A stretch of DNA of 64,000 nucleotides from a virus (taxonomy: Duplodnaviria > Heunggongvirae > Uroviricota > Caudoviricetes): positions 33,220 through 97,219 of IMG/VR virus record IMGVR_UViG_3300046533_000211. The stretch is one strand, 5' to 3'. The notes beneath the pieces were generated by a model that saw only the letters and a list, made by a program, of their open reading frames with translations, was not told where the DNA came from and searched no databases. The translations under genes and the position numbers were made by a program. Positions 6,709-54,956 of the stretch are shown here, piece after piece (the first letter of the stretch is position 1; each line of letters begins with the position of its first letter).

Positions 6709-7221
6709 ATGACGATCAGAAACTCCGATCAGAGTCCTCCCCAGCGCCCCTGCGGCACCCCGCGACCCAGGAGCTGCCTTGTGCTCTGCCCCGTCTGTCT
6801 CCAGCCCGTCAAGACCAACAGCCGGGGTGAGGTCAAGCCGCACACCGACGCCCACTTCGGTGACTGCCCGATGGGTGGCCGGGTCGCCCCGCCTTGGGAT
6901 GAGGACAGCACCCGGCCTGCAGTCCAGGGCCGCTCCGGTGGTATCTGCGAATACTGCTCACAGCGGCTGGCCACCGACATGCACCACCGCAAGTCGCTCG
7001 GCGTCGGAGGCTTCTGGCAACCGGCCAACATCATCCACATCTGTCGGCCCTGTCACCGCTTCATCACTGAGCACCCGAACTGGGCCTGGTCGCTCGGGCT
7101 GATCGTGCGTTCCACAGAGGACCCGGCCAAGAGATCTGTCACCCGCGAGAACGGGGACATGTTCCAGCCCTCCGATGACGTGGCCCCACCGCTGCCCAAG
7201 AAGCATCGAAGGAAGCGATGA
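6709..7221 (+). CDS. HNH homing-type endonuclease
   Basis: CxxC...CEYCS...HHRKSLGVGG...NIIHICRPCHRFITEHP: HNH His-Asn-His zinc-finger nuclease motif. Confidence 0.75.
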   Translation: MTIRNSDQSPPQRPCGTPRPRSCLVLCPVCLQPVKTNSRGEVKPHTDAHFGDCPMGGRVAPPWDEDSTRPAVQGRSGGICEYCSQRLATDMHHRKSLGVGGFWQPANIIHICRPCHRFITEHPNWAWSLGLIVRSTEDPAKRSVTRENGDMFQPSDDVAPPLPKKHRRKR

Positions 7222-7310
7222 CCTGCAAACGCAAGCACAGCTACACCGTCCAGCGGCGAGGCAGGCGTCCGATATTGGTTTGCGTGAAGTGTGGGAAGGA
7301 GATCCGCTAG
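7218..7310 (+). CDS. zinc-ribbon peptide (30 aa, MTCKRKH...LVCVKCGKEIR)
   Basis: ATG 7218 overlaps HNH stop (ATGA); below ORF-track cutoff. Confidence 0.35.
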   Translation: MTCKRKHSYTVQRRGRRPILVCVKCGKEIR

Positions 7311-7314
7311 AGCC

Positions 7315-8604
7315 GTGACGAAGATCGTCCTGCACCCAAGCGCCCTGCCGCGCTTCCCCCAGGCCCCGTGCGAGCTACACGGGGCCTGGAAGTGGTGGCG
7401 GGTGCGAGTTCGCGGCGACATCATCCAGCGGTACGAGCCAAGCCGGGACGACATCCAGACAGCGATCCTGGAGTTCGAGGACGGCTACCCGGACACCGAG
7501 ATCACCGACCCGCCAGTCATGCGGGTGGTCACCGTGAACGAGATCCGTGACTTCGGCAGCCCGCTCAGATCAGCGATGCTGGACTCCAGCACCACCGAGG
7601 CCCTCATCGTCTGGAATGGCAGCCCCGGCCCGGACTGGCAGCCACTCCCCGGTAACACCTGTCGCCCTGGTGAGTACGAGATCGTCACGCTGTCCAACCG
7701 GAGCGAGGAGCGCAGCAGCTGGCGGGATGCCTACGAGGCCCGGTGGTCCTCAGACCAGCGGCGGCTCCAGTGGCCACCCCAGCGGGCCACCCAGCGCAGG
7801 CCACTCACCGTGGCCGAGGCCGAGCAGGCGCTCAGGGATGTCAGCAGGACCGTCCAGGTTTACCGGGGCCAACTGGACGACACGGTATTGGCATTCGAGC
7901 GATTCGAGGAAGCGGCCCGGATCAACCGGGAGCAAGTGCAGCAGCTCTACGCCGTGCCACCTGAGATCCTGCTGACACCACCACCCAGGCCCCGGCGTCA
8001 GCCGCTGCCGCCGCAGACCGCCCGTGTGGCCTGGAACCCAGACGGCTCCAGGACTTACACCTTCGACGCACCCACCGGCACCTACGACGCGGTGGTGTTC
8101 CAGGACGGCACCGAGGTTCCCTTCCCCACCATCACGATGGCCTCTCAGGGTCAGGTCATCGTGACGGTATCGGCTGACAACACGGTGATCCCCGACAGCC
8201 AGCCCCGGTTGCGGCGGGCACTCGGTGACCCCAACCGTGCGCGGTACGCCCGAGTGGATACCAGGTGGGAAGCCAGCCCTGCGCTGACTGATCCACGGTT
8301 GAACCCGGAGAAGAAGGTGCTGGACTCCATCGAGGAGCTGGTCAACGACCAGATCACTCGGGCGGCTCCCCGTGGTGTGCCACTGGACGACTACGACACC
8401 GACCGCTACCCGGAATGCAAGGAGTGCGGCCACGACTGGCACGGGCTGGAGTGCGACCCCGAGGACGGCTCCTGCGAGTGCATCAACACCGACTGGCTCG
8501 GACCTGACCAGAGGACCAAGCACCTAGACCTCGATGAGCCGACCCCGCTGGAGATCCAGCGCCCTGAGGGCACCCGGATTCGGAACCTGGACATGGACTG
8601 GTGA
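7315..8604 (+). CDS. hypothetical protein (about 430 aa; C-terminal CKECGH...C.C cysteine cluster)
   Basis: ORF 7291-8604; GTG 7315 has GGAAGGAG upstream (alternative GTG 7291). Confidence 0.6.
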   Translation: MTKIVLHPSALPRFPQAPCELHGAWKWWRVRVRGDIIQRYEPSRDDIQTAILEFEDGYPDTEITDPPVMRVVTVNEIRDFGSPLRSAMLDSSTTEALIVWNGSPGPDWQPLPGNTCRPGEYEIVTLSNRSEERSSWRDAYEARWSSDQRRLQWPPQRATQRRPLTVAEAEQALRDVSRTVQVYRGQLDDTVLAFERFEEAARINREQVQQLYAVPPEILLTPPPRPRRQPLPPQTARVAWNPDGSRTYTFDAPTGTYDAVVFQDGTEVPFPTITMASQGQVIVTVSADNTVIPDSQPRLRRALGDPNRARYARVDTRWEASPALTDPRLNPEKKVLDSIEELVNDQITRAAPRGVPLDDYDTDRYPECKECGHDWHGLECDPEDGSCECINTDWLGPDQRTKHLDLDEPTPLEIQRPEGTRIRNLDMDW

Positions 8605-10353: not shown

Positions 10354-10580
10354 CAGCCGAGCACGGCTCTCGCCGCAGCGACCTTGGCCTGGAGCACCTT
10401 TCGCGACTCGGGGTCTAGCTCACCGGACACCAGCTCCACCGCAATGACCAGTTCAGCCAGCGCCGCCGTCTGCTTCTCATGCTTCTTGCGGCTCTGGATG
10501 AAGGCGTTGACCCCTGCCGTCACCGCCGCCGAGATGGCAGTGCCGATGCCGGTGATCAGGACATCGCCAGCGCTGGGCAT
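10353..10580 (-). CDS. small membrane protein (holin-like, 1 TM)
   Basis: ATG at 10580 within ORF 10353-10646; hydrophobic ITGIGTAISAAVTAGV segment. Confidence 0.5.
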   Translation of the reverse strand: MPSAGDVLITGIGTAISAAVTAGVNAFIQSRKKHEKQTAALAELVIAVELVSGELDPESRKVLQAKVAAARAVLG

Positions 10581-11044
10581 CAGGGGTCCTTGCGGAAGAA
10601 CAGCATCCAGACATCCCGCCCGACCAGGAACAACGTGAAGGAGCACACGGCGAAGAAGACGTAGTTCGTGAAGATGTTCACATCAGCGAACGGGAAGTCC
10701 GCATTGATCCTGGCCGACCAGACGGACCACATCACCGTGGACAGCAGGATGTCAGCCACCAGCCGCAGCGACTTCCCTGCGTAATCGTGGTGATAGATCC
10801 GCAGCAGCCACCCGCACAGGTACAGCGCCGGGGCAATCAGGCCAATCGTCTCCCAGATGGCATAGCCGAGGGCGACCGGCTTCTCCAGCACCTGCATCCG
10901 CTGTGCGCCGGGGGTGATCATGATGTGGATGATGGCCGCGAACACGAACGGGTAGAGCAGCACGCTGAACCGGATGTACGGGTCAGGCTCAGCCTTCCAG
11001 CGCTGGAAGGCGTCGCGGAACTTGACCAGCGGCGGGGTGATCAC
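10580..11044 (-). CDS. 4-TM membrane protein (holin/lysis-associated)
   Basis: 154 aa with 4 hydrophobic spans; adjacent to endolysin. Confidence 0.6.
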   Translation of the reverse strand: MITPPLVKFRDAFQRWKAEPDPYIRFSVLLYPFVFAAIIHIMITPGAQRMQVLEKPVALGYAIWETIGLIAPALYLCGWLLRIYHHDYAGKSLRLVADILLSTVMWSVWSARINADFPFADVNIFTNYVFFAVCSFTLFLVGRDVWMLFFRKDP

Positions 11045-11445
11045 GCTGGCTTCACTACGGACGGGGTGCCCTTGGGTCCAATCTTCGAGCAGCCCAGCGA
11101 GGTGAGCACAGACGCCACGGCCATCCCGGCACCCACCACCAGTGCATCAAGTAATGGGACCGCAGTGATCCCAGACGAGTCGCCCGCCTGGATCAGGCCC
11201 AGGCCCACGACCACACCCTGGCCGAAGGACTTGATGGCACGCTCGGCGGCATCCTTCCAGAACGCCTTGGTCCAGATCGCCCCGGTCGCCTCTGGTTGGC
11301 TGAACTCAGCAGCAGCCTGCTGGGTGATCTGCTCCTCGGTGACGGGTGGAGCTACCCGCTCGATCAGATCCTCGGTTGGTTTGACCGGCTCGGCTGCCCT
11401 GTGCTCACCCACATAGTCGGGCTGCTCGGGTCCTGCTTGGCCCAT
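11041..11445 (-). CDS. holin-like protein (C-terminal 2 TM)
   Basis: Hydrophilic N-terminus then GVVVGLGLIQ...GAGMAVASVL TM pair; immediately downstream of endolysin. Confidence 0.6.
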   Translation of the reverse strand: MGQAGPEQPDYVGEHRAAEPVKPTEDLIERVAPPVTEEQITQQAAAEFSQPEATGAIWTKAFWKDAAERAIKSFGQGVVVGLGLIQAGDSSGITAVPLLDALVVGAGMAVASVLTSLGCSKIGPKGTPSVVKPA

Positions 11446-11454
11446 GGCGACCTC

Positions 11455-14013
11455 CTATTGCATCGGGACTCGCTGCGCCGCCCAGTAATGGACGTGCTGG
11501 ATCGCGTGGGCGAGGTAGGTCTGGCCGGGGAACACCTCGCGCATGTGGTACTCGATGTGTGGGGCGGTGCCCTGTGCGAAGAAGGTGATCGCCAGCACGG
11601 CTGCGTAGATGGCGGCGGCGATGCCCTTCACGGACAGGAACCGCTCGTCGCTCCCCAACCGACCAGCCAGCTCGTTCAGCCTGGGCAGCCGGGTCGCCCC
11701 TTCGAAGGTCACACCGAACCGTGCAGCCTGCGCCTTGGCATCCTCACCGGCATCGCCGTCCAGGTTGCCCAGCAGCTCGATGCAGTTGTAGGCGAAGTCA
11801 CGGGCGAACTCACGGAAGCCATCATGCAGCTGCATCTCGGTGACCATCGTGTACACGTCGCGCATGATCTCACCGGCCAGGCCCAGCGGGACCCCGGAGT
11901 ACATGTCCCCGTCGTCGCACTCGTCTGCCCAGTTGTCGAACATGTCGATCTGGCGATATTGAGCGATCCCCTCGTCCGGGCGGGGAGGGCCACCGTAGAA
12001 GGTGTGCCCCTCCTGGCGGCTCGGGTTGCCGAAGGTGTATCCGGCCACGAAGTTATCCCGCACCGACTCCAGCCGCCCACCGGGCAGCGTCTCCTGGTGG
12101 ACCCGCGCAGCGGCCTCGCCACCCTGGCTGTAGCCGCCGAGCATGAACGTGCGATTCGGGTGGGCAAGCAGCCAGTCCACCGACCAGTCCACCGCGATCT
12201 GGACGCTCTCCTGGTAGCTCGGGGACTGGGCACCCTCACCGCTGGCACCACCGAGCGGCCCCATGCTCCAGGGGGCCTGGACGGGGACCTCCTCAACGAC
12301 GCCTGAGCACCCGTCAGCCACGTCCGAGGGGTAGCCCACCCCAGGAGCGGCCCACGTCCCGCTGAAGGTCAGCAGGGCATGCCTATCGGCAGGCTGACCG
12401 CCACCCTCGGGCGGGGGGATGAACGGTGGTGGGGTGCCGCCCTCCAGCACGCGCTTGATCTCGGCCACGCAGTCGGTGATGGACAGGCCACCCAGCTGCG
12501 GCCAGCCATGTCCGTCCACCCCGGCCAGCTGCTCCCACTCCAGCTTCGCGTAGTCCTCCGCAGTGAGCGAGCTGGCCTCAATCGACAGGCCTGCTGGCTG
12601 CACGGTCTGCTGGACCAGTGAGCGGACTGCCGCCAGGGCATCGACCAGGTAGAGGTTCAGCCCCTCGGCGTTCTGGCCCAGCTGGGGCCAGCCTGTGCCG
12701 TAGCCCGTGGCCGGATCGACCGGGCCGCACAGCTGCTCGTAGGACAGCTTCACGTAGTCGGTGTCCGCTGGGGGCGGCGGCTCGACAACCGGGGCCGGGA
12801 CCGCCGACCAGGTGTAGCCCTTGGGCGGGATCAGGGTGGCCACCTGGTCGAAGCTGCACCAGTAGCCGAACGGGTTGAACCCGCTGTCCGCGATCCAGAT
12901 GTGCCGACCCTCAGGCCCCTCGTAGTAGCCCATCCCCGCCACATAGTGGAACACCGTGCCGCCACCGTAGCTGGGTGACTGCGACCCCCTGGTGCCGCGT
13001 GGGTAGTTGGACGGCGGGGCGACCCAGTTCATCACCACACCCCAGCCCGCATCGAAGCTGTTCTTGAGGTGCACCCACAGCTCGTCCTTCTGCTGCTGGC
13101 TGATCGGGTCCTGCTCCAGATACAACTCGCGGTAGTCACCCTCGGGCACGTAGCGGTCCAGCACGTCCTCGATCAGCCCCACATAGTCGGTGCCACCCGT
13201 GTCGGTGCCCATCTCGTTGGCCAGCTGCTGCTCGGAGACGAAGATGCCCCTGGCATTGAGCACCACCTGGGTGGCGGCGGGTCCGCACCAGTAGCCCGTC
13301 TCCTGGGGTGTGATGCTGTGGTCGTAGGCGAGAACCTTCTCGACCGCTTCTGGTGCTGGCATGGGTGGACCTCCTCCGATTCCCAGCTCAGCGGCGAACT
13401 GCACTGGGTCTAGGCCGTAGGCGAAGTTGTGATCGCAGTTGCCGAACGGCGGTGACGACTGCGGCCCAGAGCCGTAGCCCTGGCCATCGGTGTACTGGTG
13501 GGCGATCTGGCCTGGATAGTTGGGGCGTGTGGTGCTGTACTTCGCCACCACCAGCCGCACCCCCTCCGGTCGCTGCGGCCACAGGCTGTCGAGATCGCCC
13601 TGGTTCCCGTAGCCGATCACCCTGCGGCGATCCCCCAACCAGGCGCAGAGGTCCTCGAACGCCGCGTTGATGCCCCCGCTCTGGTTCCCGGTGATCTCCC
13701 CACCCCACGATTCCACGTCCAGCATGATCGCCATCTTGGGATGTGGCTGTCCCACTTGGGACTTCAGCGTGGCGACGGCGTCCTGCCAGTTGGGTCGCCA
13801 GACGAAGTACACCTGGAAGAACGTCAGCCGTCCCTCGTCGGTCTTGCGCCTGCACCAGTCGTAGTTGCCTGCCCATTTCTTGTCCCGGTAGGTGCCGTCG
13901 TTGGATCGGATGCAGATGACCGGGTGCGGGTACGAGTCGTCGCAGGGCACCTGCCACTCGGACACGTCGCAGTAGAGGGTGTCGGCCACCTGGGCATCGT
14001 CCCACGCCGACAC
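11455..14013 (-). CDS. multidomain endolysin: GH25-like muramidase + C39-like cysteine peptidase + 2 repeat modules + LysB-like cutinase/esterase (GYSQG)
   Basis: DVSEWQ GH25-type start motif; YWCGPAA...FHYVAGMGY papain/C39-like Cys-His; tandem about 45-aa repeats (YxxLxxEQL.G...GWPQLG); C-terminal GYSQGGE serine-esterase motif as in mycobacteriophage LysB; GTG start 14013. Confidence 0.75.
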   Translation of the reverse strand: MSAWDDAQVADTLYCDVSEWQVPCDDSYPHPVICIRSNDGTYRDKKWAGNYDWCRRKTDEGRLTFFQVYFVWRPNWQDAVATLKSQVGQPHPKMAIMLDVESWGGEITGNQSGGINAAFEDLCAWLGDRRRVIGYGNQGDLDSLWPQRPEGVRLVVAKYSTTRPNYPGQIAHQYTDGQGYGSGPQSSPPFGNCDHNFAYGLDPVQFAAELGIGGGPPMPAPEAVEKVLAYDHSITPQETGYWCGPAATQVVLNARGIFVSEQQLANEMGTDTGGTDYVGLIEDVLDRYVPEGDYRELYLEQDPISQQQKDELWVHLKNSFDAGWGVVMNWVAPPSNYPRGTRGSQSPSYGGGTVFHYVAGMGYYEGPEGRHIWIADSGFNPFGYWCSFDQVATLIPPKGYTWSAVPAPVVEPPPPADTDYVKLSYEQLCGPVDPATGYGTGWPQLGQNAEGLNLYLVDALAAVRSLVQQTVQPAGLSIEASSLTAEDYAKLEWEQLAGVDGHGWPQLGGLSITDCVAEIKRVLEGGTPPPFIPPPEGGGQPADRHALLTFSGTWAAPGVGYPSDVADGCSGVVEEVPVQAPWSMGPLGGASGEGAQSPSYQESVQIAVDWSVDWLLAHPNRTFMLGGYSQGGEAAARVHQETLPGGRLESVRDNFVAGYTFGNPSRQEGHTFYGGPPRPDEGIAQYRQIDMFDNWADECDDGDMYSGVPLGLAGEIMRDVYTMVTEMQLHDGFREFARDFAYNCIELLGNLDGDAGEDAKAQAARFGVTFEGATRLPRLNELAGRLGSDERFLSVKGIAAAIYAAVLAITFFAQGTAPHIEYHMREVFPGQTYLAHAIQHVHYWAAQRVPMQ

Positions 14014-14060
14014 GACAGCGTGGCGATGATCTGTCCGTGTCCGGGCCTACAGTTGGGCCA

Positions 14061-14237
14061 TGAACAAGTGGTGGCCGATCTGGGGGAAGGTGCCAGCCGA
14101 GCCGGTGGATGGTCCCACCAGTACGCCCGCTGACGGCATTCGCCCACTGGTGGACATGACGAAGGGCAATAAGCACGTCCCGGTCAAGCACGCGCTGTTC
14201 CCCAACCGGATGAACCGCAACAAACGGATGCCCTAAG
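14061..14237 (+). CDS. possible small ORF (58 aa) on opposite strand in the lysin/tail gap
   Basis: Only ORF in a 220-bp gap not covered by minus-strand genes; weak RBS. Confidence 0.2.
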
Positions 14238-15576: not shown

Positions 15577-17316
15577 TCACTGCCACTCCACCAGGGTGTA
15601 GCCAGGTCCACCAGTCCCAGCGGTGGCCGATGCTGCGTAGTAAGCACCACCCGACCCACCACCACCCGCGCCGTAGCCCGTGCCGTTACCGCCCGAGCGC
15701 TGTCCGTTGCCGCTAGCGCCAGTCACGCCACCGCCGCCGCCACCGCCACCGCCCTGGCCTGCAATCGGAGCCGGGCCAGGGTTACCTGGCGCTCCGCTGG
15801 GATAGGGTGCTCCACCCGTGCCACCAGTCGATGCTGGTGGGCCTGTGCTGCTGCCACCATTGCCGCCAGCAGTAGCACCGCCGCCCGCCGAATTGGCGTA
15901 CCCACCCGCACCGCCGCCGCATCCGGCATCAGTGGTGCCTGTGCCGTGTTCATTGGCCAGGGTGCCGGTCGAGTAGCCGCCAGTCCCACCCGCCTCGGTG
16001 GTGGACCCGCCTGGGAACCCAGTGGGCGATCCTCCAGCGGTGCGGGTGGCTGAGCTGGACCCAGCGGCACCAGCCGCACCCCCACCTGCGGAGAGCGACG
16101 TGGCACCGCTGACGAAGGTCGCCGCTGCACCTGCTGCACCTGCCGCTGCCGTACCGGGCACCACGACGCTGTAGGTCGACCCAAGGTTGGCCTTCGGTAT
16201 CCACGGGGTCTGGAGGTACGCGCCACCGCCACCGCCTTTACCGCCGTACTTGTTGTTGCTGCTGCCGGAGTCGATGACACCTGCGCCACCGCCACCGCCC
16301 GCACCGATCAGCGTCACCCGAACCTGGCTGGCGTTGGCCGGGATGGCGACATTGGTGCGGGGCTGGTTCTCCTCGGTTATCGGGGTGAAGGCGTTGATCG
16401 CAGTGGCTGACAGCGTGCCAGCACCGTCGAGCAGTGACCCGCCAGTGTTGTCCGTGGTGATCGGATAGATCTGCTTCACCGCTGAGCTGAGCGATCCCAG
16501 GCCGACCAGACCACCGGGCACGGTGGTGTAGATCTGCTTGAGCGCAGCAGCCAGATTGCCGACGCCGGTTAGCCCACCGCCACCACCGACACCGACTGCC
16601 GAGAACGAGTCGATGGCACGGCCTGGCGCAGGTCCGTCGTAATAGCACCCGATGTCGACCAGCCGGTGACTGGCATCACGCGGGACGAGGTTGCTGCTGT
16701 CGGTCCAGATGGACCCCGGCACCAGCACGTCGTTCAGCAGGCCGTAATAGGTATTGCCGGTGCGCCGAAGGGCGATCTTGTCTCCGGTGGTGGTGGTCAC
16801 AGCGGGTGACCCGTAACCCGTCCAGGTTGCCCAGTCGGTTTGACTGTAGATCGTGAATGCGGAGCCGCTGGAGAACAGGAATGCGCCCTCGCCAGCGTTG
16901 TTGAAGCCACCGCCGACCATCGCGTAGTTACCACCGGGAGTCGATCCCAGGATGATGGACACCTCGAAGTCGTCGGACGGCATCGGGGTGTTGTTGCTGT
17001 GGATGCACCAGTTGCTGGCACCCAGCGCGACGGCCTGGCCGCTCCTGATGCCCAGCCCGCTGCCAGCGCGATAGGTCCAGCCCGCTCCCAGATCGTTGGC
17101 ATCGGCGCGGTTGAAGTCATCGGTGACGGGGGGTGCACCGCCTGCCATGGACACCTGATACTGCGGTATGACGGCGGCGGTGAGTGACCCACTGCCACTC
17201 GGCGCAGGGCTAGCGGAGAACCGTGGTTTGACATTGGCGGTCAGCGCCCCGGATGAACTGAACGCGGGGTTGGTGCCCTGACCGATAAAGGCGGTCGCGG
17301 TGAGTGTCCCGGCCAT
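15577..17316 (-). CDS. glycine-rich minor tail protein
   Basis: 579 aa; N-terminal beta-rich domain paralogous to the domain in 17323-19320; long Gly/Ala/Ser-rich C-terminus typical of actinophage minor tail proteins. Confidence 0.7.
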   Translation of the reverse strand: MAGTLTATAFIGQGTNPAFSSSGALTANVKPRFSASPAPSGSGSLTAAVIPQYQVSMAGGAPPVTDDFNRADANDLGAGWTYRAGSGLGIRSGQAVALGASNWCIHSNNTPMPSDDFEVSIILGSTPGGNYAMVGGGFNNAGEGAFLFSSGSAFTIYSQTDWATWTGYGSPAVTTTTGDKIALRRTGNTYYGLLNDVLVPGSIWTDSSNLVPRDASHRLVDIGCYYDGPAPGRAIDSFSAVGVGGGGGLTGVGNLAAALKQIYTTVPGGLVGLGSLSSAVKQIYPITTDNTGGSLLDGAGTLSATAINAFTPITEENQPRTNVAIPANASQVRVTLIGAGGGGGAGVIDSGSSNNKYGGKGGGGGAYLQTPWIPKANLGSTYSVVVPGTAAAGAAGAAATFVSGATSLSAGGGAAGAAGSSSATRTAGGSPTGFPGGSTTEAGGTGGYSTGTLANEHGTGTTDAGCGGGAGGYANSAGGGATAGGNGGSSTGPPASTGGTGGAPYPSGAPGNPGPAPIAGQGGGGGGGGGVTGASGNGQRSGGNGTGYGAGGGGSGGAYYAASATAGTGGPGYTLVEWQ

Positions 17317-17322
17317 CAGTGC

Positions 17323-19320
17323 CTACTGGTACGCATAGAACCACGCCTGTCCGCGCCCACCGACACCGCCCGCACTGGAGCTGAGGAACGAGCCATTGCC
17401 GCCAGCGGCACCCGCACCCGGAGCGCCACCCGCACCACCGTTGCCTGAACCAGCGGCACCACCGTTCGCAGAGATGCCGCCCCATGCGGTGTTACCTGGC
17501 CCCTGACCCCCTTGACTGCCGGTACCGGAACCGCCCGCAGCACCAGCTGAGGACGAGGTCGCCATGCCTGTTCCGGTAGCAGTGGTGGCCCCGCCAGCGC
17601 CGCCCGCCACGTTGTTGCCCGAGCCAGCCGTACCGCCCACGCCCACCGTCCCGGTGATCTGGGTGGTACTCCACGGGATGTCGACGCCACGCACCAGGGT
17701 GCCCATCGTGTAGACCGCCGCCTTGCCACCGTTGCCAGCTGTCGAGCTGTAGTTGCCCGACGCACCGCCACCGCCACCACCGAGCAGGATCATGTCGATC
17801 TTGTTCGCCCACCAGGGGATGGCATAGGTGTACGCGCCTGCCGTGGTGAAGTTCTGGCTAGCGGGTCCGTTGGGTGCGAACCCCACTGTGGCCGCCAGGG
17901 TGCCGATGCCGGTGGGGGCGGCTGTGCGGAACTCCCGCTTGAACACCGTCGCCATCATCGTGCCTTCACCACCCGCACCAGAGGCACCGACACCGGAGAC
18001 GCCACCGCTGGTGGCAGTGAACGACTCGATGGCGCGATACCCGGTGCCATCGGTGTACTGGGCCACGCCGACCTGGCGGTGGTTGGCATCGCGCGGAATG
18101 ATGTTGAGGCTGTCGGGCCAGGTCAGTACCAGCCCACCGTTGTAGAAAACGGTGTAGGTGTTGCCCCTTCGCCTGACGGTCCACTGGTCACCGACGTTGG
18201 AGGTGGCAACGGCTGCCGAGGCCTGACTGGCGAGGCCGGTGGTGTCCCACAGACTCTGGGTGTAGATCGTGACCCCGGAGCCGCCATTGAAGAAGGCGAA
18301 GATGCCCTCGCCCGCCGCACTCATCCCCAGCAGGATCGTGGCGTAGTCACCACCACCCGTGAAGGCACCCAGGACGATGGAAACTTCCATGTCGTCCTGG
18401 GCCATCGTGACGGGTGCAGTGGCCTCGCACCAGGTGGTCACGGGGACGGGATACAGCGCGTTGCTGATGACCCCGATGACGCCGTTGCGATTCGTCCAGC
18501 CGTTCCCCGGTGAGGTGGTGGAGTTGGCCCGGACGATGCCATCGGTGAAGGTGGGAGTCGAGGCGTTATAGATCTGGCTGGTGGTCGGCGTCAGGATGCC
18601 ACCGCCACCATACTGCGGTGCCAGCAGGTACTGGATGACTGTGGTCGCACCGAGCGCACCGCCACCGTTGAGGTTGACCAGTGCCCGGAACAGCTGGTAC
18701 GCCTGCGACGACAGGGCACCCGACCCAGCAAACGCCACCAGCACCCGGTTGACCGCAATCACGGTGGCCGAGGACAGCGCGCCAGCTCCTGCGAACTGCG
18801 CGACGACATTCTGGAGTTCGCCGATCAGCAGCCCCGCGAGGCTGCCGTTGCCGGTCAGCTGCACCGCCTGCGGGTAGATCTGATACCACCAGGCCGAGAG
18901 GCCATCGCCCTGTGACCAGCCGCCGATCACCGACGCTGACAGGGTGCCCTCGCCGAGGAACCACGCCGGGTTGCCAATGGTGGCGTCATAGGCGATTGCG
19001 GACAAGGTGCCCTGGCCTGTCTGAGCGATGGCAATGGGGATGATCTGGGAGAACTGGGCAGCGAGTGAGCCATCACCGGCCAGCACAGCGGAACCGGGCA
19101 CGATCGGTTGGGGTGCCCCAACGAGCAGCCCGCCGCCGCTGAACTGAGGAGTTCGCCTCTCGATCTTGGTGACCGTGGCGGTCAGGCTGCCGTCACCGGA
19201 GAATAGGACGAAGGTCGGCAGCTTCCAGCCTGGGACCGGCACCACGGGTGAAGCTGCAGGTGTGACCGCCCAGCCCTGTTGAGGTCCGGGCGGCGCTGGC
19301 GGGGTGACCACCCATGCCAC
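17323..19320 (-). CDS. glycine-rich minor tail protein (paralog)
   Basis: 665 aa; shares ...RRGNTY...PRDA.HR..VG... domain with 15577-17316; Gly-rich C-terminus. Confidence 0.7.
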   Translation of the reverse strand: MAWVVTPPAPPGPQQGWAVTPAASPVVPVPGWKLPTFVLFSGDGSLTATVTKIERRTPQFSGGGLLVGAPQPIVPGSAVLAGDGSLAAQFSQIIPIAIAQTGQGTLSAIAYDATIGNPAWFLGEGTLSASVIGGWSQGDGLSAWWYQIYPQAVQLTGNGSLAGLLIGELQNVVAQFAGAGALSSATVIAVNRVLVAFAGSGALSSQAYQLFRALVNLNGGGALGATTVIQYLLAPQYGGGGILTPTTSQIYNASTPTFTDGIVRANSTTSPGNGWTNRNGVIGVISNALYPVPVTTWCEATAPVTMAQDDMEVSIVLGAFTGGGDYATILLGMSAAGEGIFAFFNGGSGVTIYTQSLWDTTGLASQASAAVATSNVGDQWTVRRRGNTYTVFYNGGLVLTWPDSLNIIPRDANHRQVGVAQYTDGTGYRAIESFTATSGGVSGVGASGAGGEGTMMATVFKREFRTAAPTGIGTLAATVGFAPNGPASQNFTTAGAYTYAIPWWANKIDMILLGGGGGGASGNYSSTAGNGGKAAVYTMGTLVRGVDIPWSTTQITGTVGVGGTAGSGNNVAGGAGGATTATGTGMATSSSAGAAGGSGTGSQGGQGPGNTAWGGISANGGAAGSGNGGAGGAPGAGAAGGNGSFLSSSAGGVGGRGQAWFYAYQ

Positions 19321-30314: not shown

Positions 30315-33300
30315 GGATTCCCTGGTACTGGAGCAGCGCCGACCGTCGCAGTCTGGCGGGAGCCGTCAACCTGGGCATTGTTCACCGACGACTTGAATTG
30401 GTCCGGTGTGGTCACCCCGTTGTTGTTCACATGGATCTGGACACCGGGCGCACCCGGTCCTTGGCCCTGAGCGCCCACAGGTACATTGGCTGGCCCCTCA
30501 CTAGGGGCCATCGCATTCGGGATGTCAGCGGGGCCAGGAGGGGCACCAGTGCCCGCATGTGTGGTGTCCGTGGTATCGAGGCCGGGGATCTTGATACCGA
30601 ACAGCGACGAGAGGAAGTCACCGGCACCGCCACCGGACCCCGCAGCGGCACCGCCACCGGACCCCGCAGCGGCACCGCCACTGCCCGTCCCCGTCCCCGT
30701 CCCGGTGCCCGTCCCACCGCCCATGTTCTGCAGCAGGCCCATGCCGTAGCCCATCCCGCCCATGGCCAGCTTCCAGATGCCCCACTCCGTGAAGGGCTTA
30801 CCGAACACATCGGGGAAGCCCAGCTCCTGGAACATGCCCTTGATCAGACCCTGGCCCAGCTGCTGCGCTGCGCCCGAGTCACCAGCGCCAGCCTCAGCAC
30901 CCTTGGCGGCGGGCTTCTCCAGCTCCAGTGCCTTGTCACGTTGCGCCTTGGAGACGTTGCCCTGAGCGTCGGCCAGGCTGCCGGTCGTGTCGGCAAGCGA
31001 CTTCTCGGCAGCCGCCAGCTTGTCTCGGGCCTTCTGGATGTCATCGGCCTGGAGCTTCTGCTGGGGTGCGGGCAGCGCCAGCAGCTTGTCCAGGTCGGCC
31101 TGCTTGGCATCGCGGTCCTTCGTCAGGTCACCGATCTTGCCGTTGATCTCATCCACGCGCTTCTGCTTGTCCGCGATGCCCTGGTCCATGTCGGCCAGCC
31201 TGGCGTTGCGCCTGTCCGTGTCGTAGTTGCCACTCAGCGCACCACCGCTGCCCGTACCCGTACCACCACTGCCCAGGCCACCAGTCCCGCCACCGCCCGC
31301 ACTGCTGACGGAGGCATTGAAGATCTGACCGCTACCGCCACCGCCACCGCCCCAGGCGGCTGGTGCTTCACCCGTCCCGTCATTGGTGACGTGCCCGCCA
31401 CTCACCTGGGCAGTGGGTGCTCCCGCCGAGGCCATGGCGGAAGCGAACCGGTCCAGGGTGGAGCGCTCCGCATCGCTGTAGCTGGCACCGGACATGTCAG
31501 CATGGCCCTTGGGCCACCAGTCGATGCCCCGGTTGTATCCCGACTTCTCCTGGTGGCCTGGGTAGGTGCTGCCCTCGACACCGAACTGGTCGCCCAGCGC
31601 GTAGACCCACTGCGGGAACCCTGGCGCACCCTGGCGGATGTCAGTGCCAATCGGCATCCCGTAGGGGGAGCCGTCAGGGGCAGTGAAGAACGAGGTGTGG
31701 ACATGCCCGTGGTGCCCGCCCCAGTCACTCGCGTAGTAACCGGACTGGCCTGTGCCGGGGCCGACCAGCTTGCCGCCCGCCTCACCGATCTCCACACCGC
31801 TCGCCGGGTTGGCCCAGATGACCTGCTGCACGCCCACCTGGCCGCCGCCCGCGAACTTCTCACCCGTGTGATGGTCACCGAAGTTAATGCCGTCCAGGAG
31901 TTGCTTGTGCTTCTGGGCCTTGTCGCGCTTGACCACGTACTCGCCGACCTCCAGCACGCCATGCACGGAGTCCTGTCCCGGCTGCCAGTCACCGGGGATG
32001 GGCTGCTGCATGTCACCGAACGTGGGCAGTTCGGCGAACCCGCCCTCCTGCTTCTGTAGTGGCTTGATCCACGGAATCACGTTCTTGGTGTACATACCTG
32101 CGCGCCACGCAGCCTTCTGGGCTGGGTCAATGGGGATGACCTGGACGTTGCCGCCCGACTGATAGCCGTGCCCCTCACCGATGAAGTTCGGCACGCCCTG
32201 CGAGTTCTGCCCGTACCGCTGCATCACGTAGTCGATGGCGGCGGCAATCTGGCCTGTCGGATCAAGGAACGGGCGGCTCAGGATGTTGTGTGCGTCGTAG
32301 GTGGACTTGATGAACTGCAGGATGCCCTGACTGGGGGTGCCCTTCTGGGCATTGGAGTCGGTCAGGTTGATCGCGTTGACATTGCCGCCCGACTCGGTGC
32401 CGATCTGCGTGACCAGCTTGTCGATCCACGCCTGGGTGTTGGTGATCCCGTAGCGGGGTGCCAGCGTCGTGACCACGTCCGTGACCGCAGGTCGCCAGCT
32501 CTCGGCTGACCCACCGCCAGCCATCTGGCCCAGCGCACCGTAGTTGCCCGCCGCCCCACCGCCACCGGGCAGCACACCAGCGCCTGGCGGGAACAGATTG
32601 GCGAGCGGGTTCTGGCCCGGACCCGCGACGATGGTGGCCGGGAGTTCAACCCCCTTCGTACCTTGGAAGTCTTTCGGGACGCCCGCGATGTCCATGATCT
32701 GGTCGACGGAATGCACGTCCTGCGTCTTGATCTCGGTCTCGATGGGCAGCTTCTTCTTGGTCGTCTCCTCGTACCACTTGGTGAAGTCGTCCTTGATCTT
32801 CTGGTTGCCGGTGAGCACCTTGGTGACGATCCCGTCCGGGCCGGTGGTCACCTCGACCCCGAGCTGGGCCAGCTTCTGCTTGCTCTCGGCCATCTGCTCC
32901 GGGGTGCCGATCAGCTGCATCTGACCGGTGTCGGTCGCCTTGAACATGTCCTGGACGGCTTCCTTGCCGGTCGCCGCATCGGTGATGTTCTGCTTCAGCG
33001 CCTCGCTGAAGTGCGCGCTCGATTCCAGCGGGTCGGTGAACGAGTGCAGGCCCTCCTGGATCTTGGGGATCTGGTCGGCAGCATGGTTGATGCCCTCGCC
33101 GAAGGTCTTGGCGTACTTGGTGAAGTCAACGTCGCCAATCGCCTTGAGGTCCCAGCCCATCTTGCTGACCGCGTCGTTGGCTTCCTTCATCCCCGGGATG
33201 TGCAGGGTGGAGCCGACCGCCGTGACCGCGTGCACGACCTGGAGCATTGCCTGACCCACGTCAACGATGGCCTCCTTGACCACGTTCAGGTAGGGCGCAA

Positions 33301-39113: not shown

Positions 39114-40556
39114 TCACCAGACTGGAGCCGTCAGACCGGTGACCTTGACCACCGACTGCGGGTACCGGGCTGCGCTGAACGCGAGGTAGTTGTAGATCTG
39201 CAGGATGACCGTGAGCGTCTGAGCCTTGGTCTCGGGCAGCACGCGGGCGCGGATGCCACCCTCCCACAGCACGATGTCGCTGGACCGCAGGACCAGAACC
39301 GGGTCCTCCGTTCCGGCTCCAGCAGTGACGGGCAGGTTGGGATCGGTCACGACCGGCAGCCCCTGGATGTTGCCGACCACCTGTTGGGACGCCACATCGC
39401 TGACCACACCGGCCACGTTCATGGGTCCGTTCGCGGTGCCCAGCACCAGCGGGCGCTGTTGGGTGTCGAGCAGGCTGGTGAACCAGCCCCACCGACGCGG
39501 GTGCATCACGATCACGTCAGGCGGCAGGAACCGCGTCACGTGAACGGTCTGGATCGCGTTGGCGATGGCCGAGTAGAAGCCCTTGATGTCGACCGTCGCA
39601 GCTGCCACGCTGCCGATTCCCGGCGTCGCGAGGATGCCGAGGATCTGTCCCGTGAGGCCGGTGCCACCGATGACCTGGTTGTCGGTCTTGGCGGCATGGT
39701 CGGCAGTGAGGTCACGGAACACCACATCATCGAACGCGATGGGTGACTGGTCGATCAGCTGGATCGCAAGCGACTGCTGACCGGCGATGGTCCGCACCGG
39801 GGCGTTGATGAAGGTGTCCGTCAGATCCACCTGCGACACGGCCTGGTTGTCGGCGGTCTGGACGCCGACTGCCGTGCCCGTGAGCAGCTTCGGGATGTTG
39901 ATGGAGTCCGTGCCACCCGGCAGCGGCTGGCGCTGCACCAGGTTGGCCAGAGCACGGCCCGGACGGGCCAGCTCCACGTACTGGGACATCAGCCACGCGG
40001 GCGGTACCGCGTAGCCACCGGAGCCGTCGACCCTGCTCAGGTCACGGAACTCCTTGTAGTCGTCGCTGGTGGCGACATCCTGTGCGTGCCGGAACAGCCG
40101 GTCGCGGGCGGTGCCATCCTGGTCCAGGTTCATCGAGTGCTTGATGAGGTCCTGCATGTAGGAACGACGCGGGTCGCCCTTCTGATAGATGGCCTTCTCC
40201 TTGACGCGGGCAATCGCACCCTCGGCAGAGCGGATGCGGGCCAGCGAGTTGCTGATCTGGCCGCTGCGCTCTACCTCGGCACGGACCTCCTCGATCCGCT
40301 CTTCGAGGCCCTTGATCTCGTCACCGATCTTCGCCATGTCGGCGGTGTAGCGACGGAACTCGGTGTCCTCCTCGGACTCCAGGGTGTCCCGGCCAGCGCC
40401 GCGCGCCTCCATGAGCACGGCCTCGGCCTTGCCCTTGAGTTCGTCACGGTCACGTACCAGCTTGGTGTGCCGCTTGAGCAGCCGACCAAGGTACTCATCC
40501 ATCCCACCGGCAGGCTCCATCTGGACGCCGGGTGGGCTTTCGTCGATAGTTGTCAT
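39114..40556 (-). CDS. major capsid protein (HK97 fold) with N-terminal coiled-coil delta/scaffold-like domain
   Basis: 480 aa from ATG at 40556 (MTTIDES...); about 110-aa charged coiled-coil N-terminus then capsid-like body. Confidence 0.75.
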   Translation of the reverse strand: MTTIDESPPGVQMEPAGGMDEYLGRLLKRHTKLVRDRDELKGKAEAVLMEARGAGRDTLESEEDTEFRRYTADMAKIGDEIKGLEERIEEVRAEVERSGQISNSLARIRSAEGAIARVKEKAIYQKGDPRRSYMQDLIKHSMNLDQDGTARDRLFRHAQDVATSDDYKEFRDLSRVDGSGGYAVPPAWLMSQYVELARPGRALANLVQRQPLPGGTDSINIPKLLTGTAVGVQTADNQAVSQVDLTDTFINAPVRTIAGQQSLAIQLIDQSPIAFDDVVFRDLTADHAAKTDNQVIGGTGLTGQILGILATPGIGSVAAATVDIKGFYSAIANAIQTVHVTRFLPPDVIVMHPRRWGWFTSLLDTQQRPLVLGTANGPMNVAGVVSDVASQQVVGNIQGLPVVTDPNLPVTAGAGTEDPVLVLRSSDIVLWEGGIRARVLPETKAQTLTVILQIYNYLAFSAARYPQSVVKVTGLTAPVW

Positions 40557-40739
40557 CGCTGACTCGATTCGGATCGGTGCCCAGTGGGCACGGGCTAGTT
40601 GCGAATCGGCCATCCCGTGCCGGGGTGTCCTCGATGCCGAATCGGCTCCCAGTGCCAGGGCTACCAAGTCAGATCTGGAGAGATCGTTGCCCCGGCGCGG
40701 CACCCTGTCAAGACGACACGCGCTGGATACCCTTCCGAC
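40557..40739. promoter_or_regulatory. divergent regulatory region between capsid and MTase genes with three about 23-bp direct repeats (GAATCGG.TCCCAGTGCC-like) and 15-bp palindrome GTGCCCAGTGGGCAC
   Basis: Repeats read at about 40566, 40603, 40639; palindrome 40580-40594. Confidence 0.45.
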
Positions 40740-41429
40740 ATGGTGATTCGGCAGTACGTGGACAAGCTGGAGGGCGACGACTTCCTGCATGCCCAGGCGA
40801 TGGCATGGCGCGACATCCGCGAGTTCATGGAGGAGGACATCATGCCGCTGGTTGCTCAGGCACCAGGCGGCTCTGTGAACGGGCCAGGGTCCAGCCTGGG
40901 TTGCACGGAACCTGTCGTCGCACAGCTGCCCGCACTGCTGCATCGCTACGACGTGAAGACGATGCTCGACGTGGGCTGTGGTGACTGGACCTGGATGCGC
41001 CACGTGGACCTGACCGGGATCGACTACACCGGATGGGACGTGGACATCACCCAGGTCAGTCGTAACCGGAGCAAGTTCCCCGCACACCGGTTCGACTCCG
41101 AGAACATCCTGACCGTGGAGGACATGCCGCGCTACGACGTGATCCTCTGCCGCGATGTGCTGGCTCACCTGCCCACCGAGCACATCCTGGCCGCACTGGC
41201 GAAGTTCAAGGCCAGCGGCTGCCGCTACCTGCTGGCGAGCACCTACCCAGGAGCCGACAACGCCTTCGACTACCGGCCCGAGCACTATGCCTGGCTCGGC
41301 TACTGCGAGCACCCGGTGGACCTCCAGGAACGCCCGTTCGCACTGGCCGAGATCGAGTGCATCGAGGAGACACCTGGACCAGGGGGCGTGATCGCACTCC
41401 CGCACGAACTCGGGCTGTTCCGGCTATGA
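40740..41429 (+). CDS. class I SAM-dependent methyltransferase
   Basis: LDVGCGDW motif I; ATG 40740 within TTG-initiated ORF 40599-41429. Confidence 0.7.
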   Translation: MVIRQYVDKLEGDDFLHAQAMAWRDIREFMEEDIMPLVAQAPGGSVNGPGSSLGCTEPVVAQLPALLHRYDVKTMLDVGCGDWTWMRHVDLTGIDYTGWDVDITQVSRNRSKFPAHRFDSENILTVEDMPRYDVILCRDVLAHLPTEHILAALAKFKASGCRYLLASTYPGADNAFDYRPEHYAWLGYCEHPVDLQERPFALAEIECIEETPGPGGVIALPHELGLFRL

Positions 41430-47366: not shown

Positions 47367-47732
47367 TCACGGAGCGGTGCGCTCCCCAAGGTCGTGGGCG
47401 AACGCAGGCAGGCCAGGAGCATGCGGGTCGCGGTGCTTCTCACCATCGACCCGGAACCACTCCATCCGCTCATGCTGCTCAATGCCGGGTATGCACTCAT
47501 CCATCAGCCAGTCCAGGAACTGCTCGCGGCTGGTGATGCGCTCGGGCACGGGGAAGATCGGCCCCGCCTCGAAGGTGCCGTCCGGGTTGCAGGCATCCGT
47601 CCCGGTGGCCCAGATGATGACATCCGTACCCACGCCGGGATGGATCAGCCAGCCAGGCCGGTACGTCACACCATGCAGCCAGGCAGCGATGGTCGGTGCG
47701 TCAGGCACGACGCAGGTACGCCAGCCCCTCAT
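47367..47732 (-). CDS. hypothetical protein (about 120 aa)
   Basis: ORF 47367-47786; start choice uncertain, overlaps protease 3' end. Confidence 0.4.
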   Translation of the reverse strand: MRGWRTCVVPDAPTIAAWLHGVTYRPGWLIHPGVGTDVIIWATGTDACNPDGTFEAGPIFPVPERITSREQFLDWLMDECIPGIEQHERMEWFRVDGEKHRDPHAPGLPAFAHDLGERTAP

Positions 47733-53558: not shown

Positions 53559-54956
53559 TCAGCCCCAATTGAGTGGGTCGTCGGGATTATCAGCGGCGCG
53601 GCGTGCCAGCACGGCCCTCATCAGCCAGGGGCGGCCCTGCGCCACGCGGTAGATCTGGAACAGCTCCCGATTGCGTTCGACATCACGGGTCCACCCTCGC
53701 GAGTCGGCCTTGGCCCCCACGTAGGTGTCGTGGACCGAGCCGGTGGAGTGCTTCGGCTTCTGGTTGTGCTCGAACGAGTAGACGCTGCCCTCCAGCCTCT
53801 TGACCCGCGACAGCGTGCCGACGATGGAGGTGAACGAGGTGTCCTCCCAGCCCCACCCGATGAACTCTGGCGGCTGCCCACCGAGCCGCCAGTACTCCTT
53901 GCGGGTGGCCACCAGGCAGCCACCCACCCCGGCCACGCCGTCACCGTCCCAGGTGTTGATGAACGGCACGCTGGCCAGCTCAGACAGCGGCGTATCCAGG
54001 TATTTCGGGTCGAGAATCCGGTATTTCGTGAACGGCCAGCAGACACCCACCGGTTCGGCCACCGCCCGCAGCACATTCAACGGATCGACCAGGGTGTCGG
54101 CATCGGAGATCACCACCACGTCAGTCTCAGCCTGGCGCACCGCGTTGTTGCGGGCCTGGGCCAGGCTGAACACCTTGGTGTCGGAGTCGGCGGTGATGAC
54201 AGGCCAGCCGAACATCGCCCAGTACTCCTGCACGCGCTTGAACGCTGCGAGCCTGGAGCGGGAAGGACGCCACGGAATGCACACCGTGGCCCGCAGCCGG
54301 GGCTGCAGCTTGGGCATGAGCAGCGCAGGCTGGACCACGTCGAGCGGATGTCTAATTTCCAATTTCGCAATTCGCAATCGGCGCGCGGTGCTGGGCTTGG
54401 CGAACAGGATGATGTTCTGGCGATACCACCATTCGACCCGTTGATCCCACCAGATGCGCTGTCGCACAACATCATACGGCTGAAAACCGTGCTCAGCGAA
54501 CAGTCTGGCCCAGTAGCTGGGCCAGTGCAGGTTGATGTGCCCCGTCCCGTCCTGACCCGGTGGGGCTGCCGAGAAGGCCACGACGCTCCCATGGCGGCAC
54601 AGCGATTCGACCAGGGTGCGGCTCGCCCTCTGCGGCAGGTGCTCGGCCACCTCCAGGCACAGCACCAGGTCGGCCTTGCGGCCCAGGCGTAGCGGCTCCG
54701 TCAGGTCATGGGCGCGGAACAGCGGTCGCACCGGGTCGGGCAGCAGCTCCCTCACCCACTCACCGTCGACACCGGCCAGCATGGTCACGCCCTCATCGAG
54801 GTGCGCCCAGGCGCGCAGCCAGGTGCCCACGCCACAGCCCACATCGATCACCGTCTCCGGGTTGATCAGCTCCTTCAGGATCGGGACGACCACCTGCGCC
54901 GACGACAGTGACCCATCGGCCTGCCATGCATAGAACTGCTCGTCGTAAAGGGGCAT
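53559..54956 (-). CDS. bifunctional SAM-dependent methyltransferase (N-term) / family-2 glycosyltransferase (C-term)
   Basis: VIDVGCGVGTW MTase motif I; GT-A-like C-terminal half with VISDADT (DxD) motif. Confidence 0.7.
   Translation of the reverse strand: MPLYDEQFYAWQADGSLSSAQVVVPILKELINPETVIDVGCGVGTWLRAWAHLDEGVTMLAGVDGEWVRELLPDPVRPLFRAHDLTEPLRLGRKADLVLCLEVAEHLPQRASRTLVESLCRHGSVVAFSAAPPGQDGTGHINLHWPSYWARLFAEHGFQPYDVVRQRIWWDQRVEWWYRQNIILFAKPSTARRLRIAKLEIRHPLDVVQPALLMPKLQPRLRATVCIPWRPSRSRLAAFKRVQEYWAMFGWPVITADSDTKVFSLAQARNNAVRQAETDVVVISDADTLVDPLNVLRAVAEPVGVCWPFTKYRILDPKYLDTPLSELASVPFINTWDGDGVAGVGGCLVATRKEYWRLGGQPPEFIGWGWEDTSFTSIVGTLSRVKRLEGSVYSFEHNQKPKHSTGSVHDTYVGAKADSRGWTRDVERNRELFQIYRVAQGRPWLMRAVLARRAADNPDDPLNWG

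Follow-up and report, generated by a model that had tools for sequence, protein, structure and literature searches.

Can one polypeptide naturally carry both of the enzyme classes with which mycobacteriophages open the envelope of their hosts? LysA breaches the peptidoglycan and LysB the mycolic-acid outer membrane, and both classes are being developed as anti-mycobacterial enzybiotics. The question is raised by a locus in IMG/VR virus record IMGVR_UViG_3300046533_000211 (Caudoviricetes), of which positions 33,220 to 97,219 were analyzed here; this stretch of 64,000 nucleotides (nt) is called the window throughout. At positions 11455–14013 of the window lies an open reading frame (ORF) of 852 amino acids (aa), which a first reading of the letters, made before any database search (hereafter the sequence-only reading), had described as one endolysin composed of a GH25-like muramidase, a C39/papain-like peptidase, two repeat modules and a LysB-type esterase. 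Our analysis indicates that this ORF very probably encodes a genuine single-polypeptide siphovirus endolysin, in which a complete LysA is joined to a LysB through a linker, with Mycobacterium or Mycolicibacterium as the most likely host.

A single reading frame at the LysA/LysB junction

The endolysin ORF is complete and lies on the minus strand, a detail absent from the sequence-only reading, with a GTG start at 14013 and a stop codon at 11455–11457. The ORF listing of the window contains no stop codon inside it, bearing out the claim of one uninterrupted 852-aa frame. The motifs quoted in that reading were all found, namely DVSEWQ at aa 16–21, YWCGPAA at aa 241–247, FHYVAGMGY at aa 355–363, and GYSQG at aa 627–631, as were the two ~45-aa modules of the form YxxLxxEQLxG...GWPQLG, which start at aa 420 and aa 488. 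Each part of the four-part architecture (GH25-like, C39-like, repeats, LysB esterase) survived the tests described below.

The identical 852-aa protein, with the same neighbors, is present in a 22-kb contig of Logan assembly SRR26076634 and in a 97-kb contig from JGI. Its LysA and LysB parts meet at a Pro/Gly-rich linker, GTPPPFIPPPEGGGQPAD (aa 526–543; 12385..12438, minus strand), which is in frame and contains one run of six cytosines (C6) within the codons ACC CCA CCA CCG TTC ATC CCC CCG CCC. The peptide on either side of this run aligns in frame with L003, a related fusion locus in which the linker has no homopolymer, and an assembly artefact is therefore unlikely. In relatives with adjacent lysA and lysB genes, LysB begins exactly where aa ~541 of the window protein aligns. 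The window linker contains no in-phase slippery heptamer of the kind found in many relatives (see below), LysB is in frame, and the window gene has no internal start that would spare the first strand of LysB. Because the heptamer is absent and LysB is in frame, the fusion would be the sole product of this gene. No second LysB-like sequence was found in any frame of the 64-kb window.

Domains of the LysA part

The N-terminal domain (aa 11–212; 13378..13983, minus strand) is assigned as a GH25-fold glycosidase. It contains DVSEWQ and, at aa 99–103, DVESW, and is 76% identical to aa 168–369, the central domain, of LysA (gp31) from Mycobacterium phage Fionnbharth. In a PDB search, a profile from the A3 alignment picked up only the domain of NlpC/P60 type at the N terminus of other LysAs and missed the window domain, so a structural route was taken. 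The AlphaFold model of aa 1–222, built on 47 homologs, had a predicted local distance difference test score (pLDDT) of 87.5, and its top four PDB matches were GH25 enzymes or endolysins: 2WAG (expectation value (E) 4.9e-5, template modelling (TM) score 0.65), 3HMC, 4FF5, and 2NW0. Asp16, Asp99, and Glu101 are invariant across the 47 homologs; from their motif position (an N-terminal Asp plus D-x-E), we infer that they are the GH25 catalytic residues. One relative (P0085) matches PF08924 (Rv2525c_GlyHyd-like), a related family. The GH25 assignment rests on the fold and on homology to LysA domains that have been named GH25 (PMC3314691).

The second domain (aa 224–415; 12769..13344, minus strand) is a C39-like cysteine peptidase of the papain fold, the ‘N5’ domain of Payne and Hatfull. 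Pfam PF13529 (Peptidase_C39_2) matched aa 235–377 with an E of 3.7e-11 and 44.2 bits against a gathering cutoff of 24, and PHROG endolysin families matched the domain at E ~1e-106 (PHROG 1519, E 4.8e-106). Cys243, His356, and Asp376 are invariant in the alignment of the fusion family described below. Over the whole protein, PHROG endolysin families cover aa 9–215, 224–423, and 541–848.

The peptidase is followed by two copies of a putative wall-binding module. Repeat 1 (YVKLSYEQL...GWPQLGQ; aa 420–466; 12616..12756, minus strand) has its motif at aa 420–447, and repeat 2 (YAKLEWEQL...GWPQLGG...IKRVLEG; aa 487–525; 12439..12555, minus strand) at aa 488–509; the two are 38% identical over 55 aa (E 1.7e-4). 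Their assignment to the Rv3766_C type (PF27131) comes from a precomputed label on the identical 852-aa protein, PF27131 not being part of the Pfam release with which the window protein was scanned. The repeats sit where LysA proteins carry their putative wall-binding domain.

Taken together, these are the domains of modular mycobacteriophage LysA proteins, such as Fionnbharth gp31 with its GH25 domain and Bxz2 gp11 with its N5 C39-like peptidase: GH25, N5/C39-like, and a C-terminal putative wall-binding module (Payne & Hatfull 2012, PMC3314691). Their arrangement differs, however: 211 of the 224 LysAs in that survey follow the order peptidase, glycosidase, binding, whereas the window protein runs glycosidase, peptidase, binding. 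A LysA chain that runs on into LysB is not reported there.

The C-terminal domain is predicted to be a LysB esterase

Aa 544–852 (11458..12384, minus strand) form a domain that we assign as a LysB-type serine esterase of the cutinase fold. It carries the nucleophile elbow GYSQG, encoded at 12121–12135, and GDMY at aa 702–705; the candidate triad Ser629, Asp703, and His819 is invariant in the fusion family and in 62 homologs. The domain matches PHROG 102 with an E of 4.8e-73. It aligns end to end by BLASTP with Fionnbharth LysB (gp32) at 32% identity, except for a ~60-aa helical insertion by which the window LysB differs from its Fionnbharth counterpart.

A phmmer search with the full protein against PDB sequences gave only a marginal match in the C39 region and missed D29 LysB, and a domain profile was therefore needed. 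With a profile of 62 sequences, the best PDB sequence was D29 LysB (3HC7; E 1.9e-9), and the alignment placed GYSQG and GDMY opposite the catalytic motifs of D29 (Ser82 and Asp166). His819 lies a few residues past TFFAQG, which aligns with TFFARS of D29; the column that would pair it with D29 His240 falls outside the displayed alignments. Foldseek likewise returned 3HC7 as the top match (E 6.2e-10) for a model of aa 541–852 (pLDDT 87.7), followed by acetyl-xylan esterases and cutinases. Profile and structure thus both bring up D29 LysB first, in agreement with the cutinase-like LysB esterase with GYSQG that the sequence-only reading had proposed.

The domain matches 1,154 cultured-phage records, 1,141 of which are Mycobacterium phages. 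In a spread sample of 60 of these records, the match falls on a separate lysin B gene, which is named ‘endolysin’ in one record; a few matches also overlap adjoining lysin A, endolysin, or holin features. The sequence and model data support identification of the C-terminal domain as LysB, with a predicted mycolyl-arabinogalactan esterase activity.

Like D29 gp12 (3HC7) and Ms6 LysB, the window domain combines a cutinase-like alpha/beta-hydrolase fold with GYSQG, an Asp in GDMY, and a candidate C-terminal His, and it is encoded in a lysis cassette next to a holin. It differs from LysB of the D29/Ms6 type in being the C-terminal part of a LysA chain, without a start codon of its own, and in having no peptidoglycan-binding module of its own. 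Such a module is also a point of difference from LysB of phage Typha, the N terminus of which resembles a peptidoglycan-binding domain by sequence reading.

Multi-catalytic endolysins are familiar from phages of Gram-positive bacteria; staphylococcal LysK, for example, consists of CHAP, amidase, and SH3b domains. Such enzymes combine only peptidoglycan hydrolases. The window protein resembles endolysins of this type in placing several lytic domains and a binding module on one chain with flexible linkers, but adds a predicted lipid-ester hydrolase aimed at another layer of the envelope.

The fusion belongs to a small metagenomic family

Ten homologs of the fusion (P0002–P0010 and P0013), 771–828 aa in length and 53–69% identical, were found in JGI, ENA, and Logan data from several samples and sequencing centers. 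All of them carry C39, repeat, and LysB in one ORF, and the single ORF was confirmed at the DNA level in L003/L004, L005/L031, and L032. As evidence for the fusion, these diverged homologs carry more weight than the two matching assemblies. Their N-terminal glycosidase varies: it is GH25-like in P0002 and P0003 and GH19 in P0013, while P0004–P0010 begin with an ‘LVES...GVFQQR’ domain that reads as SLT-like from its motif. Such exchange of N-terminal glycosidase domains is the kind of modular shuffling for which LysA is known. The fusion is shared rather than unique, and belongs to a small metagenomic family of uncultured phages.

Among 50,697 deposited phage genomes we found no such fusion: none of the 1,765 matching records covers more than 60% of the protein in one place, and where coverage is best, the match runs across neighboring lysin A and lysin B genes that are annotated separately. 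The statement of the sequence-only reading that LysA and LysB are encoded separately in studied phages holds by this count (0 of 1,765). In a representative library of 1.84 billion proteins, the full-length fusion is represented by a single cluster at 50% identity and by one fragment, out of 1,082 matches. No report of a natural LysA-LysB fusion or of a lysA-lysB frameshift was found in the literature that could be searched.

Other combinations occur in metagenomes. A GH25-like domain and LysB share a single ORF of 570 aa in an Actinomycetota metagenome-assembled genome (L006, 1440–3149, minus strand; CAWDEZ010000026.1) and one of 614 aa in P0249, and a C39+...+LysB arrangement occupies the 878-aa P0039. 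Since GH25+LysB and C39+...+LysB exist as independent architectures, fusion of a peptidoglycan hydrolase to LysB has arisen more than once.

A candidate −1 frameshift at the junction of relatives

Thirteen related loci (L033–L038, L041–L043, L079, L081–L083) first looked like two-gene cassettes. In these, the LysA/repeat ORF ends in the 0 frame with ...GAG CCC CCT TTA (or CCT TTC), which contains an in-phase C_CCU_UUA/C, a canonical X_XXY_YYZ heptamer. The LysB frame is the −1 frame and opens at the heptamer. The conserved N terminus of LysB ([DE]RHALLT[CF][SA]GTWA...), including its first beta-strand, is encoded in the −1 frame, usually with no preceding ATG, GTG, or TTG, and the 0 frame ends 6–40 codons past the heptamer, in non-conserved residues.

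To extend this set, a frame-agnostic pattern was used that consisted of the heptamer, 30–60 nt, and then the LysB N-terminal codons. In IMG/VR it returned only already known loci; in JGI metagenomes it returned 31 matches (L094–L124) representing 16 distinct junction sequences; in each of the 31, a long in-phase ORF precedes LysB, which occupies the −1 frame. Genomes that retain the heptamer range in guanine-cytosine (GC) content from 46% to 69%; in the high-GC ones, CCT makes up ~5% of Pro codons and TTA <2% of Leu codons. The long ORFs of the 13 loci span 43,213 codon positions; C_CCT_TTN stands in phase at 11 of them, and these occurrences are taken to be the junction sites themselves.

Because a LysB without its own start sits in the −1 frame after a conserved in-phase heptamer at about 25 related junctions, the simplest reading of these sequences implies a programmed −1 frameshift, which would give both LysA and a LysA-LysB fusion. 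Programmed −1 frameshifting is known from the G/GT tail assembly chaperone of lambda and from Escherichia coli dnaX. The relatives resemble these systems in the in-phase X_XXY_YYZ, the downstream −1 frame without its own start, and the 0-frame stop soon after, an arrangement that predicts a short and a long product sharing their N terminus. They differ from them in that the predicted site lies in lysis genes, rather than in tail-assembly or replication genes, and in that a conserved stimulatory RNA structure was not detected downstream, where the 70 nt folded no better than shuffled sequences (z between −2 and +1.4). The window gene differs further from lambda G/GT and dnaX in having no heptamer at all. 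If such frameshifting does occur, the heptamer would represent a recoding site so far undescribed for the lysis genes of phages, lysis genes would join the short list of recoding-controlled phage functions, and automated annotation would truncate or mis-start lysB in these genomes.

Two other accounts of the shifted loci were rejected. A homopolymer sequencing error does not fit, since the run of five cytosines (C5) has the same length whether a locus is shifted or in frame, and it is in the variable linker that the frames diverge. Counted modulo 3, the distance between heptamer and LysB is 0 in every shifted locus but 1 in L005 and L032, which are in frame; C-run length is thus not the source of the difference. 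Stop–start coupling, through a CTGA overlap with a CTG start, is contradicted by CTA or TTA at that position in three loci and by the conserved −1-frame [DE]RHALLT residues upstream of the 0-frame stop.

Not all relatives follow the shifted pattern. In L005/L031 (about 11404) and L032 (about 6972), the heptamer is kept in phase and the 0 frame runs into LysB, while the −1 frame meets a stop ~5 codons on; slippage there would thus yield a LysA-only product, the reverse of the logic in the shifted relatives. L080 has a genuine two-gene arrangement without the heptamer. On balance, we favor the view that the window gene is a frame-fixed member of a lineage in which LysB is never free-standing. 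For most of its members, LysB would arise solely as a C-terminal extension of LysA, or of the wall-binding repeats of LysA, through a −1 frameshift at C_CCU_UUA/C that sets the ratio of LysA to LysA-LysB, and a one-base linker change together with loss of the heptamer would have given the obligatory 1:1 fusion of the window.

Individual junctions show further variation. In L042 (about 6741–7522), an insert of ~780 nt, with an ORF that is HNH-endonuclease-like by sequence reading, lies between LysA and a small ORF; the latter consists of one repeat module and the heptamer, and LysB follows in the −1 frame. In L082 (2585–2971 and 3001–3876), the Rv3766_C repeat module was called as its own 128-aa ORF apart from the C39 ORF, and the heptamer at its end leads into LysB, an arrangement from which it would follow that the binding module alone can be the frameshift partner. 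Gene callers truncate lysB in contigs with heptamer-bearing junctions.

Lysis cassette and probable host

The window belongs to a siphovirus, with a terminase, a head protease, a major head protein, a 1,464-aa tape measure, and several minor tail proteins encoded on the minus strand. Minor tail genes and a few small genes precede the 852-aa ORF, which is followed by a holin and a membrane protein. The holin gene (134 aa; 11041..11445, minus strand) lies immediately downstream of the endolysin gene and matches PHROG 443 (holin) with an E of 2e-16; the identical locus in Logan is labeled PF16945 (Phage_r1t_holin). The cassette also encodes a second multi-pass membrane protein (154 aa; 10580..11044, minus strand), which matches PHROG 5552 (membrane protein) with an E of 1e-5. 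The cassettes of Typha and Fionnbharth have the same plan of minor tail genes, small genes, lysin(s), and holin, but their lysA and lysB are separate, abutting or overlapping by one base, whereas the window has one ORF. In Typha the lysA stop and the lysB start share ATGA.

A gap of ~220 nt (14014–14232) separates the endolysin start from the last of the small genes in the tail region and could be a promoter or regulatory region of the lysis cassette; it holds a 58-aa ORF on the opposite strand (14060–14236), which is called in the Logan annotation too. Two large glycine-rich minor tail proteins are encoded upstream of the cassette (15577–17316 and 17323–19320, minus strand).

Several comparisons bear on the host. 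The window terminase shares 54.5% identity with its counterpart in Mycobacterium phage Typha, and an 82-nt stretch at the 3′ end of the endolysin gene is 85% identical to Typha lysB. Homologs of both the LysA part and the LysB part are overwhelmingly mycobacteriophage proteins, and the GC content of the window is ~64–65%. Related prophage lysins occur in Mycobacterium and Mycolicibacterium genomes in GTDB. No fused LysA-LysB prophage was found in GTDB; because the prophage relatives there keep the genes separate, no fused prophage names a host. From these sequence relationships, the host is probably Mycobacterium in the broad sense (Mycobacterium or Mycolicibacterium).

Proposed mechanism and alternative explanations

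Based on these findings, we propose a plausible mechanism for the window protein. Inspection of the 852-aa sequence revealed no hydrophobic N terminus or signal sequence, so the protein would depend on the downstream holin for release. It would accumulate in the cytoplasm and leave at lysis time through the holin encoded directly downstream. The GH25 domain would then cut glycan strands and the C39-like domain peptide stems, while the repeats would hold the enzyme on the wall; the tethered esterase would cut the ester link through which arabinogalactan holds the mycolic-acid outer membrane. Fusion would fix LysA and LysB at 1:1, export both activities, co-localized, through the same holin lesion, and lend a wall anchor to a LysB without a binding domain of its own. 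A role for wall anchoring in LysB function is supported by reports of N-terminal regions that bind peptidoglycan in Ms6 LysB and other LysBs: affinity for peptidoglycan is described for the N-terminal part of the Ms6 enzyme (PMC8309991), and the antimycobacterial activity of LysB is reported to be regulated by a peptidoglycan-binding domain (PMC13578437). The gene probably arose by the joining of adjacent lysA and lysB; most close relatives carry the heptamer at the same junction and would make both LysA and LysA-LysB, and the window gene only the fusion.

A natural, conserved single chain suggests that the two predicted activities can work while tethered, and LysB may benefit from sharing the wall-binding module of LysA. 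Its native linker and domain order are available for engineers to copy.

Several points weigh against a single-chain LysA-LysB endolysin of a mycobacteriophage. In the Pfam check that the sequence-only reading had suggested, Peptidase_C39_2 stood well above threshold, but Glyco_hydro_25 gave no match on aa 1–220 even at E ≤ 1, and Cutinase matched aa 618–706 (E 2.7e-4) below its gathering score. An NCBIfam scan of the 852-aa protein returned zero matches. Because Pfam and NCBIfam fail here, the GH25 and LysB calls rest on homology to annotated lysins, profile-to-PDB matches, and predicted structures. The Logan and JGI assemblies may share one sample, the C6 run at codon 532 is a possible indel hotspot, and the host and all enzymatic activities of the window protein are deduced by comparison.

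That C6 run, together with the different frames of LysA and LysB in many relatives, leads to the first alternative, in which lysA and lysB are really separate genes that only seem merged because of a one-base indel in the linker. We regard such an artefact as highly improbable: the ORF is identical in two assemblies, residues flanking the run align in frame with homopolymer-free L003, ten diverged in-frame fusions are known, and split frames would leave LysB here with neither a slippery heptamer nor a start codon for its expression. The fusion might instead be a precursor that is cleaved in the linker into LysA and LysB, whether by proteases of the host or, after the conserved L-x-G-G at the end of repeat 2, by the C39-like domain itself. 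The linker is long, rich in Pro and Gly, and probably disordered, most family members have a ‘(V/T)L(E/A/S)GG’ motif before it, and the relatives appear built to make a LysA-only product too. C39 peptidases of bacteriocin exporters, moreover, cleave after Gly-Gly. By inspection, however, the motif fits the double-glycine leader consensus poorly, and in LysA proteins the N5/C39-like domain is taken to be a peptidase acting on peptidoglycan (PMC3314691); we consider processing of this kind unlikely.

Two further alternatives accept an intact chain and assign it another function. The C-terminal domain could be a hydrolase of the cutinase fold for which the mycolyl-arabinogalactan ester is not a substrate, perhaps a general lipase or a trehalose-mycolate esterase, or it could be inactive; LysA and LysB activities would then not be combined in the strict sense. 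Its low identity to known LysBs (32% to Fionnbharth LysB and 22%, by structural alignment, to D29 LysB), the ~60-aa helical insertion, where model confidence is lower, and the subthreshold Cutinase match would all allow this. Yet D29 LysB tops both the profile and the structural PDB searches, all 62 homologs share the Ser, Asp, and His candidates, and the cultured-phage homologs are overwhelmingly annotated as lysin B in mycobacteriophage lysis cassettes, which makes a different specificity quite improbable. Finally, the unusual size of the protein and the position of its gene just downstream of minor tail protein genes might point to a virion-associated lysin used during infection, rather than an endolysin for lysis from within. 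The holin directly downstream, the order of tail genes, small genes, lysA, lysB, and holin shared with Fionnbharth and Typha, and Pfam and PHROG scans in which no structural or tail-associated domain was detected leave very little room for this idea.

Other features of the window

No tRNA genes were found in the window. The major head protein ORF (39114–41405, minus strand) encodes 763 aa, and its capsid-family match covers only aa ~318–760, leaving ~320 N-terminal residues outside; a separate 651-aa protein encoded at 47701–49656 matches a head maturation protease. A 465-aa protein that matches galactosyl-transferase (53559–54956, minus strand) is encoded next to the terminase, where the structural operon starts.

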